13,241 bases of DNA from Candidatus Lloydbacteria bacterium (GTDB lineage: Bacteria; Patescibacteriota; Minisyncoccia; Phycocordibacterales; UBA6899): assembly GCA_043720495.1 (NCBI GenBank), contig JAYSSO010000026.1, positions 1 to 13,241 of the forward strand, given 5' to 3'. Of the stretch, positions 320-8,806 are shown piece after piece. A program made the position numbers and the translations under genes. Position 1 is the stretch's first letter; every line of letters begins with the position of its first letter. The notes below the pieces were generated by a model. That model was not told where the DNA came from. It made no database searches and saw only the letters and a list, made by a program, of their open reading frames with translations.

Positions 320-766
320 CTATTCCTCAGCCTTTGTTTCTTCAACCTCAGACTCTACTTTGGTTTCAAAATCTTTTGTAGACCCACCACCCATGCGTGT
401 CTGTTTCATCTTGCGACGTACATCACGGACAGCCTTCTCGCGTACATAGTAAAGCTTTGAGCGGCGAACGGTTGAGCGTTTAACCAGCTCGATCTTGTCG
501 ATCATTGGAGTATAGAGTGGAAAAATGCGCTCCACGCCTACGCCACTTGCGACTTTGCGTACAGTAAACGTAGCGCCAGTCTCTTTGCCATGCTTTCTGG
601 CAAGTACGAGGCCTTCAAATGCCTGAAGTCGATACTTCTTTTTTTCAGCATCCTCAAGGACCTTGACCCAAACACGGACCGTATCTCCGGTGCGGAATTC
701 GAGCTGGCGACGGGATTCGACGTCGACTGGTGAGAGTGTGAACTTAGTGTGTAGTGTTGAATTCAT
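320..766 (-). CDS. rplS: 50S ribosomal protein L19
   Basis: The 148-aa ORF contains the L19 core [13 protein letters not shown]...[15 protein letters not shown]...[45 protein letters not shown]. It carries an acidic/lysine C-terminal extension. Confidence 0.95.
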
Positions 767-840
767 AGTGGAGACAATCTAGCACAACCCCTTTTATCGT
801 GCAACCATACTATGTTTTGCAACATATTTTCACCACTTTA

Positions 841-861
841 TGTCAAGGAGAGTCCTTGACA
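841..861. repeat. REP-like palindrome, copy 1 (TGTCAAGGA-gag-TCCTTGACA)
   Basis: A perfect 9-bp stem with a 3-nt loop (11 bp if a840/t862 are included). It is the exact reverse complement of the 21-mer at 1573-1593. Confidence 0.85.
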
Positions 862-890
862 TGAATGCGTAGTTGGAGGAGAATGGGTTT

Positions 891-1562
891 ATGCAACGTA
901 CGACTGCTTTTGCGCCGGGTGAATATTACCACCTCTACAACCGTGGGACTGAGAAGCGGATCATCTTTCTGGACGAAGAAGATCACAACCGATTTGTCTC
1001 GCTGCTCTATCTTTGCAACAGCGGAATTCCCATTCATCGCAGTGACTACCGCACGAACTCACTGCGAGGCCTCTTTCTCATCAACAGAGAGACAACGCTG
1101 GTCGATATTGGCGCATATTGCCTGATGCCAAACCATTTCCACATTCTCCTGCGCGAACACGCCGATGGCGGAGTAAGCATGTTTATGAAAAAACTGCTTA
1201 CTGCATATGCGATGTATTTCAATAAAAAATACGAGCGGACCGGCACGCTCTTTGAGGGGCCATTTCGCTCGCGACATGTAAGCAGGGACGAATACTTGAA
1301 GTATCTCTTCGCATACATCCACCTCAACCCTATCGGGATTATCGATGCAGGGTGGAAGAAAAAGCGCATTGGGAACAAGGCGGCTGCTAATCGATATCTC
1401 AATGAATACGAGTACTCCAGTTTTCTTGATTATGCAGGAGGGGTCGCTCCTCGGTGGCAGTCGGCGATACTGAATAAATTGGCTTTCCCTGAATATTTTG
1501 AGAAGCGAAATGACTTCGAAATCTATCTCAAAGACTGGATGACAGGGGTGGAGGAGGAATAG
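891..1562 (+). CDS. IS200-like / REP-associated tyrosine transposase (RAYT, HUH Y1 family)
   Basis: The HUH motif sits in YCLMPNHFHILL and the catalytic-Tyr helix motif in FAYIHLNPIG, giving the typical ~220-aa Y1_Tnp architecture. The ORF opens at a TTG at 873, but the first ATG at 891 is preferred (GGAGGA at 875-880). Confidence 0.85.
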   Translation: MQRTTAFAPGEYYHLYNRGTEKRIIFLDEEDHNRFVSLLYLCNSGIPIHRSDYRTNSLRGLFLINRETTLVDIGAYCLMPNHFHILLREHADGGVSMFMKKLLTAYAMYFNKKYERTGTLFEGPFRSRHVSRDEYLKYLFAYIHLNPIGIIDAGWKKKRIGNKAAANRYLNEYEYSSFLDYAGGVAPRWQSAILNKLAFPEYFEKRNDFEIYLKDWMTGVEEE

Positions 1563-1572
1563 TTGCGACCAA

Positions 1573-1593
1573 TGTCAAGGACTCTCCTTGACA
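1573..1593. repeat. REP-like palindrome, copy 2 (TGTCAAGGA-ctc-TCCTTGACA)
   Basis: It starts 10 nt after the transposase stop. It has the same 9-bp stem as copy 1 with the loop complemented, so it is an inverted copy. Confidence 0.85.
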
Positions 1594-1616
1594 CAAAAAA
1601 TGGGGGTATTTATATG
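1588..1616 (+). promoter_or_regulatory. Candidate promoter TTGACA-17-TATATG for the thioredoxin-like gene
   Basis: The -35 hexamer is the right arm of palindrome copy 2 (1588-1593) and the -10-like TATATG lies at 1611-1616. An alternative is TTGCAA (1618-1623)-17-TAGGAT (1641-1646). Confidence 0.35.
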
Positions 1617-1679
1617 CTTGCAAGGGATGGGAGAATGTCTTAGGATTATCTTGGCTATTTCTTTTTATAGAGGATTGAA

Positions 1680-7832: not shown

Positions 7833-8243
7833 TTAGCGTAATTTGCTACCTGGAGGAACTTCTTTTTCTGGATGGAGGAGCATTGCACCGCCTGATTCCA
7901 GTCCAACTGCGAGAATCATGCCATAACTGGTGAGTCCGCGCATGGTGCGGGGCTCCAAGTTCGTGATAAAGGGACATTGTTTACCAATAAGATCTGCGGG
8001 TTGGTAATATTCACGAATACCGGAGAGAATTTGGCGTATATCCTGCGTTGGTCTAGCCTCATCCGCACAGGCTGGTTCGTCTTCTATTGAGAGGCCCTCC
8101 CCTTTCTGTTCTATTTGGGGGGTTGCGAGTGGCCCAAAGTCGACGGTGAGTTTCAGTAGCTTGTCTGCTCCCTCGATAAACTCGACAGTGAGAATCGTGC
8201 CAATTTTCATTTCTATTTTTGCAAAATCTTCGATTGAGGCCAT
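7833..8243 (-). CDS. tRNA-binding domain protein (CsaA/Trbp111/EMAP-like OB fold)
   Basis: FAKIEMKIGTIL...ADKLLKLTVDFG...RQILSGIREYY.P.DLIGKQ...TNLEPRTMRGLTSYGMILA matches the tRNA_bind domain. A ~27-aa acidic insert follows the VDFG motif. Confidence 0.8.
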   Translation of the reverse strand: MASIEDFAKIEMKIGTILTVEFIEGADKLLKLTVDFGPLATPQIEQKGEGLSIEDEPACADEARPTQDIRQILSGIREYYQPADLIGKQCPFITNLEPRTMRGLTSYGMILAVGLESGGAMLLHPEKEVPPGSKLR

Positions 8244-8318
8244 ATGAAATTAGTGAGTAGTAACTAGTAAATAGGGAGTAAGAATAAGAATGCTTTTTCT
8301 CAGCGTTCGCTCGGAATT

Positions 8319-8398: not shown

Positions 8399-8806
8399 TC
8401 ATTCGTCATCCAGAGAGTCGACAGGTGGATTCACAGAATCAAGGTAACTTTGGAGGACGATGGTGGCGGCGGATGCGTCATTCATTGCGTTGTCACCCTG
8501 AAGATGTGTGGCTTCCCGCGATGAGAGGGCTTCGTTCATAAAGATGATAGGGAGACCAGTTGCCACTTTCAACTCCTCCGCAAAAGGAGTGATCCTTTTC
8601 ATTAGTGGATTAGGTTGGTTTTGAAAATTGAGCGAATGTCCAATAACGATTGTGCCCACCTTTTCCACTCGACAGATGGCAGTAATGTCATCGACGAGTG
8701 TTGATGAGAATGGAATTACCCGCAACGGAAAGGCAAGCGTCCCACCGTCTGGTGAGGTCGCAAGGCCGACGCGTTTTGTGCCATAATCGATACCAAGATA
8801 TTTCAT
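8399..8806 (-). CDS. ruvX: Putative pre-16S rRNA nuclease / Holliday junction resolvase-like protein YqgF
   Basis: MKYLGIDYGTKRVGLA...IVIGHSLN...E.LSS..A is the YqgF/RuvX signature. The start is set at the ATG at 8806, because the 60-aa upstream extension in the ORF track is basic junk sequence. Confidence 0.88.
   Translation of the reverse strand: MKYLGIDYGTKRVGLATSPDGGTLAFPLRVIPFSSTLVDDITAICRVEKVGTIVIGHSLNFQNQPNPLMKRITPFAEELKVATGLPIIFMNEALSSREATHLQGDNAMNDASAATIVLQSYLDSVNPPVDSLDDE

Follow-up and report, generated by a model that had tools for sequence, protein, structure and literature searches.

The window, a 13,241-nt stretch of DNA from a Candidatus Lloydbacteria bacterium (contig JAYSSO010000026.1), contained a gene for a Y1 (single-tyrosine) transposase of the HUH type, bracketed by two short hairpins; this hairpin–gene–hairpin unit was the subject of the analysis. 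The window corresponded to contig C26 of the source genome (G000), an assembly of 1.10 Mb in 144 contigs with 46.8% GC and about 88% completeness. Other contigs of G000 are given C-numbers, and G002–G021 denote related Lloydbacteria genomes. The rplS gene (320–766, minus strand) lay upstream of the unit, and a thioredoxin-like gene (1680–2429), followed by rluD, lay downstream. Both neighbours agreed with an earlier reading of the letters alone (the sequence-only reading), which had located the unit between rplS and the thioredoxin-like gene. That reading had described the gene as a transposase associated with repetitive extragenic palindromes (REPs), that is, a REP-associated tyrosine transposase (RAYT); a related group comprises the tyrosine transposases with terminal inverted repeats (TIRs), or TIRYTs. 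The unit was composed of three features:

841–861, no strand: 5′ putative cognate hairpin, with a 9-bp stem (10 bp with the pair 840/862) and the loop GAG on the plus strand.
891–1562, plus strand: intact class 2 Y1/HUH gene (RAYT/TIRYT-like) with an ATG start, coding for 223 amino acids (aa); assigned from motifs, hidden Markov models (HMMs), and fold.
1573–1593, no strand: 3′ putative cognate hairpin, with the same stem and the loop CTC on the plus strand, 10 nt past the stop codon.

The hairpin sequences were TGTCAAGGA-GAG-TCCTTGACA at 841–861 and TGTCAAGGA-CTC-TCCTTGACA at 1573–1593, each with a loop of 3 nt. The self-complementarity of the stem makes the copies exact reverse complements of each other that differ in the loop alone. 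The 21-nt hairpin and its reverse complement had been reported from the letters at these same positions, and none is expected by chance: 200 dinucleotide shuffles gave 0 matches of the 21-mer with 3 mismatches permitted. The inverted repeat reached 26 nt at 96% (837–862 and 1572–1597), and as single-stranded DNA the two hairpins folded at −9.2 kcal/mol (z-score −6.8) and −8.3 kcal/mol (z-score −5.2). No GTAG tag was present at the foot of the hairpins, where TTTA and CCAA precede the stems, or in a 17-copy consensus, and the GGGGWSAS TIR motif was found neither in the flanks nor in the copy consensus. An Rfam scan of the region gave no match, its single hit (E 0.096) being far below the gathering threshold. 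An intrinsic terminator was considered and rejected, as no T-run followed either stem and, in the tailed copies described below, the T-run preceded the stem.

The protein encoded at 891–1562 matched the Pfam Y1_Tnp model (PF01797), a search proposed in the sequence-only reading, at 33 bits (cut-off 23). The HUH motif was N81-H82-F83-H84, with HFH at nt 1134–1142, and the tyrosine motif was Y142-I-H-L-N146-P147 (residues 142–147, nt 1314–1331). The HFH and YIHLNP motifs, both anticipated from the letters, were invariant in an alignment of 34 homologues, as were residues N81, H82, H84, Y142, N146, and P147 and, downstream of the tyrosine motif, S176-S177. Residues F121-E122 corresponded to FQ in a paralogue on contig C71. 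The spacing between the HUH motif and the tyrosine was 60 aa, inside the class 2 range of 58–67. According to Quentin 2018 (PMC6006769, Table 1), IS200 TnpA is marked by Y---Q, whereas Y---NP, together with an HUH motif of the form [ND]-H-u-H, marks the RAYT/TnpA_REP side, class 2; both class 2 motifs were present here.

The sole NCBIfam match was the RAYT model NF047646 (REP_Tyr_transpos) at 38.3 bits, with no match to an IS200 model; two paralogues scored 48 and 27 bits on the same RAYT model. The AlphaFold (AF2) model had a pLDDT (predicted local distance difference test score) of 90 and contained helices at residues 163–218, a region near the C-terminus of a protein in which no C-terminal domain was found by Pfam. 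When the fold was searched against the PDB, the best match (E 2.4e-6) was 4er8, the structure of Escherichia coli RayT bound to a REP hairpin, and the TnpA proteins of ISDra2 and IS608 followed at about 5e-4. A family profile aligned by hhalign with E. coli RayT over 96 columns (E 0.007), spanning HUH, Y..NP, GW, and SS/ST, and with IS200 TnpA over 48 columns (E 0.08). Judged by motifs, curated HMMs, predicted fold, E. coli RayT, and the IS200 proteins of the same genome, the Y1 protein is assigned to class 2, on the RAYT/TIRYT side, and not to IS200 TnpA. The RAYT-type identity first proposed was borne out in this respect by motifs, HMM, fold, and hhalign. None of the outcomes named in the sequence-only reading as refuting it was obtained: the catalytic residues were in place, the protein did not group with IS200 TnpA, and the palindrome family had additional copies in the genome.

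The IS200 elements of G000 provided an internal comparison. Four TnpA genes were intact (C39, C60, C45, and C25), encoding proteins of 144–150 aa with DHIH and YVxNQ motifs and NF033573 scores of 120–124 bits, and fragments lay on C27, C134, C89, and C78. The elements were about 590 bp long, those on C60 and C45 being 96% identical over 586 bp, and their end hairpins had different stems, a common loop TCTCTG, and direct orientation. The window unit had none of these traits, whether TnpA motifs, near-identical copies, or hairpin layout. The Pfam Y1_Tnp match, the hairpins near both gene ends, and the presence of IS200 elements in the genome could be taken to indicate an ordinary active IS200/IS605 insertion sequence, but this explanation is extremely improbable: the motif was Y...NP and not Y...Q, NF033573 did not match, and the unit was single-copy and syntenic across species, unlike the real, multi-copy IS200 elements. 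The TnpA proteins of the IS200/IS605 family (subclass 1.1; IS608, ISDra2) do resemble the window unit in the Y1 HUH fold and in having a hairpin just upstream that overlaps the promoter region. IS200/IS605 hairpins are recognised as single-stranded DNA. The family differs from the window unit in its Y...Q motif, its length of about 150 aa, its multiple near-identical copies, and its direct-oriented end hairpins with unlike stems.

The RayT system of E. coli, or REPtron (TnpA_REP, subclass 2.2; PDB code 4er8; PMC3479197, PMC2817692), is likewise a single-copy Y1 HUH gene with Y...NP. It also shares cognate flanking hairpins in opposite orientation and vertical inheritance with the window unit, and it is the closest solved fold. 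Its cognate hairpins are scattered through the genome, as are exact copies of the flanks in sister genomes of G000 and related variants in G000 itself. When compared with RayT, the 223-aa window protein had a longer C-terminal part. In contrast to the REPs and bacterial interspersed mosaic elements (BIMEs) of E. coli, the window hairpins were short, paired perfectly around a 3-nt loop, and had no GTAG tag, bulge, or mismatch. Furthermore, the copies numbered 2–13 per genome, not hundreds, and the host was a 1.1-Mb genome of the candidate phyla radiation (CPR).

The motif set of the protein fits subclass 2.1/TIRYT, a placement made by motifs and set beside the published RAYT groups by their described motifs. 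The subclass 2.1 signature comprises NH[YF]H, F[QE], FQ/W[EQ], and Y[IV]HLNP followed further on by SS, in about 238 aa (PMC6006769), with an HTH-like domain at the C-terminus, and the subclass equals Bertels group 1 (PMC5581495) and most TIRYTs of Di Nocera 2013 (PMC3733652). The likeness to a TIRYT and its TIRtron lay in NH[YF]H, F[QE] instead of WQ, Y[IV]HLNP, and SS, and in a gene bracketed by inverted repeats. Some TIRYT inverted repeats are self-complementary, some form small repeat families, and TIRs without GGGGWSAS are also listed (PMC3733652), and a survey found no REP-like secondary structures beside subclass 2.1 genes (PMC6006769). Unlike those of TIRYTs, the flanks in the CPR family were true perfect hairpins with an apical A-(G/A)-G, and GGGGWSAS was missing.

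The pairing of the hairpins was conserved while their sequence drifted. Among syntenic loci in related genomes, the apical pairs varied compensatorily (GGA/TCC, GGC/GCC, GGT/ACC, and GAC/GTC), and of the 75 TGTCAA-N9-TTGACA sites listed, about 70 had fully complementary inner triplets. In a set of 24 hairpin copies (17 distinct), in which the outer six pairs were fixed by the collection pattern and the inner three were free, all cells paired and the three apical pairs covaried, with a score of 0.21 against 0.075 when shuffled.

Each Y1 gene of G000 was associated with a hairpin of its own. Three further Y1 paralogues were detected, making four in all at 42–58% identity, one of them frameshifted, and every one of the four had a distinct flanking hairpin with a 3-nt loop. 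A small number of copies with low mutual identity in one genome is a trait of class 2, and the four genes conform to it. The hairpins of the other three were CCAAGGT-TCC, CATACGGAAGG-CTG/CAG, and TTTGGAAGC-TAA/TTA. Directly upstream of the paralogue on C71 (locus L023), two inverted hairpins formed a 47-nt REPIN-like double palindrome (C71:7753–7799), and another hairpin copy (8449–8471) overlapped the last eight codons. The frameshifted paralogue on C50 (L024), which occupied two frames with an internal stop, was still flanked on either side by perfect hairpins of 18 bp, the loops of which, CTG and CAG, were inverted (C50:7534–7572 and 8231–8269), and a third copy was located on C133. The gene on C114 (C114:18428–19105; L025, G000:C114:17500–20000) had a YINLNN motif; its hairpin, TTGGAAGC-TAA/TTA-GCTTCCAA, occurred in five copies around the gene and in one more that lay in frame within its own coding sequence (18624–18642). 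Most of the genomes G002–G021 also had a second, remoter Y1_Tnp family with frames of 214–243 aa, matching the query at about residues 62–148 with 34–41% identity; no copy of this family was detected in G000.

The association extended across the CPR. Among 78 homologues from many lineages, each with sufficient flanking sequence, 46 had one perfect hairpin on both flanks, whereas shuffling the pairings gave 1–3 of 78. Perfect hairpins with stems of 8 bp or more were present upstream of 59 and downstream of 58 of the 78 genes, and in 3 and 6 of 62 equally sized distal windows, respectively. The shared hairpins lay mostly 45–60 nt before the start codon on the upstream side and at or just past the stop codon on the downstream side. 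In the 46 pairs, the top of the stem just below the loop was A (40/46), G or A (44/46), and G (42/46), and the lower stem was variable. This pattern suggests that hairpin recognition may combine a conserved apical contact with a variable part that confers specificity.

Hairpins of the same type were also scattered through the genomes. G000 contained nine TGTCAA-N9-TTGACA hairpins besides the flanks: four AGT-TAA, three GGT-CAG, one GGC-CAG, and one imperfect copy. Across the genus there were 5–13 copies in the nine genomes with the gene at rplS and 0–1 in ten genomes without such a gene, an association among kin that does not amount to a formal test. G008, in which the rplS locus was not in the assembly, had 12 copies. 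In G005 (7 copies) and G016 (5 copies), a paralogue at another locus was flanked by TGTCAAGGC-GAC hairpins. In G019 (8 of 9), G014 (12 of 13), and G007 (8 of 9), the scattered copies were identical to those flanking the Y1 gene of the respective genome; flank-identical copies of this kind are the hallmark of a cognate REP–RAYT pair. Perfect hairpins with an 8-bp stem and a 3-nt loop numbered 100 in the whole of G000, against about 17 when shuffled. The largest REP-like family of this genome was that of the C114 paralogue, with 19–22 copies on 13–16 contigs, mostly intergenic.

The flank variant of G000 itself (GGA-GAG) had no further copies in this genome, where a search for exact hairpins, half-hairpins at contig ends, or tails found none. 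Its enzyme therefore appears to have made no surviving copies, or else the copies lie outside the assembly. The scattered variants in G000 look like older, inherited copies.

Several hairpins lay inside housekeeping genes. TGTCAA-type hairpins were found in frame in ArgRS, Tgt, MgsA/RarA, a MurD-like ligase, and Dus (imperfect), and the proteins retained full-length Pfam matches. The in-gene palindromes of G000 were as follows:

C125:5690–5710, C125:4422–4460, C125:14582–14602, C119:15201–15221, C70:8200–8220, and C123:3048–3068: palindromes within genes (loci L026, L127, L128, and L129).

ArgRS contained three hairpins, two of which were tandem TCCAAAGG-CAG copies. The Tgt palindrome lay within a 14-aa insert missing from most orthologues, and that of MgsA formed a 6-aa insert, at the same position as a different variant (GGT-CAG) in G006. 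In ArgRS the palindrome substituted for a variable loop. The orthologous palindrome of G017 was compensatory (GGT/ACC against GAC/GTC), and the peptide changed from MSRSDLDM to MSRLSLDM; pairing was thus retained despite an amino-acid change. This suggests that the DNA structure itself is maintained at the in-frame hairpins of essential genes. Rickettsia palindromic elements are short palindromes that lie in frame inside housekeeping genes. Intragenic REPs are also known (PMC3733652), and the present copies resembled both in being in-frame palindromes that add or replace a few residues in variable loops. They differed from the Rickettsia elements in that the inserts were much shorter (21–31 nt, about 6–14 aa) and were of the same hairpin type as the flanks of the Y1 gene.

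The following features adjoined the hairpins of the window:

856–884, plus strand: promoter-like site of sigma-70 type for the Y1 gene, with TTGACA, a 17-nt spacer, and GAGAAT, 6 nt before the ATG.
811–840, minus strand: outward tail of the left hairpin, with 20 of 28 matches to the consensus tail of the dispersed copies of G014 and G019.
1594–1625, plus strand: degenerate outward tail of the right hairpin, with 7 of 28 consensus matches; a weak assignment.

The promoter-like site matched 10 of 12 consensus positions, and its −35 element, TTGACA, was the 3′ arm of the upstream hairpin. A box of GAGAAT, GAATAT, or TATATT type was located exactly 17 nt past TTGACA and 6–9 nt before the ATG in 7 of 10 orthologues, with a weak box in G006. 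The Y1 gene thus appears to carry a candidate −35 box inside its own upstream hairpin. The GGAGG of this genome was not conserved among the orthologues, and the Y1 mRNA may be leaderless.

The dispersed TGTCAA hairpins of G014 and G019 (loci L159–L178) had a conserved A-rich tail of about 30 nt on one side (…AAAAAGGnTGAAAATATGGCTTAAAATAT…). At the Y1 gene of these genomes both tails pointed outward, and in G014 the loop orientation tracked the side of the tail in 11 of 13 copies. The assignment of 1594–1625 of the window as a tail follows from the good tail found at this place beside the right-hand copies of G014 and G019. The native rplS promoter (TTGCAC-17-TAGATT) was located beyond the left tail of the window, on the side away from the hairpin. 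An outward sigma-70 promoter formed by the stem TTGACA and the tail was rejected, as the nearest TAnnAT box was about 28 nt away. The frequency with which tailed copies faced downstream genes (about 9 of 12 in G014) was not distinguishable from chance with crude open reading frame calls.

These promoter-like properties bear on the alternative that the palindromes are regulatory DNA or RNA without any link to the Y1 gene, such as bidirectional −35 boxes, the operator of a dimeric repressor, or terminators. In its favour, the palindrome presents the −35 consensus TTGACA in both directions, most orthologues have a −10-like box 17 nt past the inward copy, and many dispersed copies of G014 and G019 were intergenic. 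This alternative is nevertheless very unlikely, since the flanking hairpins of the paralogues and of most CPR homologues lacked TTGACA, the compensatory pairing continued up to the 3-nt loop, where a duplex operator does not need it, and copies occurred in frame within ArgRS, Tgt, MgsA, and MurD. In addition, T-runs before and A-runs after the stem are the reverse of an intrinsic terminator, Rfam gave no match, and the hairpins were confined to genomes with a hairpin-flanked Y1 gene.

The history of the unit was examined in the spacer between rluD and rplS. The order rplS, hairpin, gene, hairpin, optional thioredoxin-like gene, and rluD recurred in eight further Lloydbacteria species and on one Logan contig, with the thioredoxin-like gene added in G000, G007, G017, and the Logan contig. 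Identity of the Y1 protein among these syntenic orthologues ranged from 61% to 91%. A perfect TGTCAA-type hairpin was present on both flanks at 9 of 10 loci. The upstream hairpin lay 49–57 nt before the start codon in 9 of 10 orthologues and at −93 in G018; downstream, a perfect hairpin lay 6–54 nt past the stop codon in 9 of 10, the copy of G017 being imperfect. A check for an empty site in relatives, suggested in the sequence-only reading, yielded 11 genomes without the unit between rluD and rplS: the two genes adjoined across a gap of 55–200 bp that had no hairpin in ten congeneric species and in the sister genus. The native rplS promoter, TTGCA(A/C)-17-TAGATT, was conserved across all states of the slot.

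In two genomes the slot was otherwise filled, by a methyltransferase gene in G012 and by an unknown 301-aa open reading frame with nearby CAAGGT-CGG hairpins in G021. The spacer (767–840 in the window; loci L018–L022 and L039–L046) was a variable slot in Lloydbacteria.

In the tree of rplS and rluD, 8 of the 9 occupied genomes formed one clade with support of 97/93, and two changes explained the distribution. The ratio of nonsynonymous to synonymous substitution rates (dN/dS) of the Y1 gene was 0.18 against the 91%-identical orthologue. The synteny, the clade pattern, and this ratio indicate one or two gains of the unit, after which it was retained as a functional gene. These data show that it entered the rluD–rplS spacer in the ancestor of one Lloydbacteria subclade and was inherited under purifying selection.

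The unit is most probably a domesticated class 2 Y1 HUH nuclease or transposase of single-stranded DNA with the 21-nt hairpins as its cognate recognition elements, that is, a REPtron/TIRtron-like unit. In the proposed mechanism, the protein would bind the hairpin in single-stranded DNA, such as that of the replication fork, and would cut and rejoin beside the hairpin by means of Tyr142 and the metal site of His82 and His84. Hairpin elements could thereby be copied or moved, and some would land in frame in housekeeping genes. The −35 box of the Y1 gene would be supplied by the upstream hairpin through its 3′ arm, and binding or extrusion of this hairpin could throttle expression.

Several observations weigh against this interpretation. 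The protein missed the curated cut-off of NF047646, a proteobacterial RayT equivalog, (38.3 against 80 bits), and PDB sequence searches with the single protein and with the 34-sequence profile gave no significant Y1 structure, the connection being made by the predicted fold and hhalign alone; since such plain searches were empty, the family is remote from every characterised enzyme. To proteobacterial RayT it is distantly related. Because the equivalog cut-off was missed and no GTAG tag was present, the window system, as judged from its sequence, is best regarded as REPtron/TIRtron-like and outside the classical proteobacterial REP/RAYT family. The exact flanking 21-mer occurred in G000 at the two flanks and nowhere else; genome-wide dispersal, raised as a condition in the sequence-only reading, was not seen for the exact 21-mer and was seen for the nine variants in G000 and for exact cognates in sister species. 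The copy numbers, in the tens and for this system 2–13 per genome, were far under the hundreds of classical REP families, and the relatedness of the genomes inflates the independence of the association between gene and copies. The loops of the 46 CPR pairs were inverted in 27, direct in 16, and different in 3. Orientation, which is defined by the loop alone, is no fixed family feature; the inverted arrangement noted at the outset was correct for the locus and not as a family rule. Finally, the tree of Y1 proteins from the syntenic loci was poorly resolved and gave no reading on agreement with the host phylogeny, and the ranking of Y1 identities disagreed with that of rluD. Exchange of the Y1 gene within the genus is possible from these sequences.

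The disagreement between the rankings would also fit a unit that is a still-mobile, low-copy, autonomous TIRtron and moves whole, with the hairpins as its ends and a gene that is not the domesticated servant of REP-like elements. This explanation would accommodate the presence or absence of the unit between rluD and rplS inside one genus, the TGTCAA-flanked gene at another locus in G005 and G016, and the several divergent paralogues per genome, each with its own hairpins; Bertels group 1, or subclass 2.1, has moreover been described as the most IS-like RAYT group (PMC5581495). It is rather unlikely in view of the remaining evidence: no second DNA-level copy of the unit was found in G000, orthologues down to 61% identity still occupied the same slot, solo hairpins exceeded gene-bearing units 5- to 10-fold, and a dN/dS of 0.18 over a long divergence fits a maintained host gene.

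Beyond the domesticated, REPtron/TIRtron-like unit of the window, a broader proposition is plausible and is put forward tentatively. A CPR-wide Y1 family resembling subclass 2.1 may co-evolve with perfect 3-nt-loop hairpins bearing an apical A-(G/A)-G and may spread them, also into the essential genes for ArgRS, Tgt, MgsA, and MurD, where compensatory changes would keep them up; the hairpin would serve as the gene's own −35 box, perhaps with a leaderless mRNA. If true, this would be the first system of REP/RAYT type for CPR bacteria and for subclass 2.1. No report of REP/RAYT in the CPR was found in the literature searched, the coverage of which was incomplete. Among replicators that persist inside genomes over long periods by vertical inheritance, REP/RAYT systems are the prime example; to our knowledge, work on them has been confined almost entirely to Proteobacteria, where the REP families are large. 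The same logic was recognised here in 1-Mb CPR genomes, in which the Y1 gene is present as a single copy between putative cognate hairpins and is accompanied by scattered hairpin copies particular to each lineage. This offers a very small and tractable system of 2–13 hairpins per genome, in which the family-wide signature, an apical AAGG above a variable lower stem, renders specificity testable, and it provides evidence of REPs for a Y1 subclass believed to lack them. For the annotation of CPR genomes, the in-frame hairpins call for caution with small palindromic inserts.

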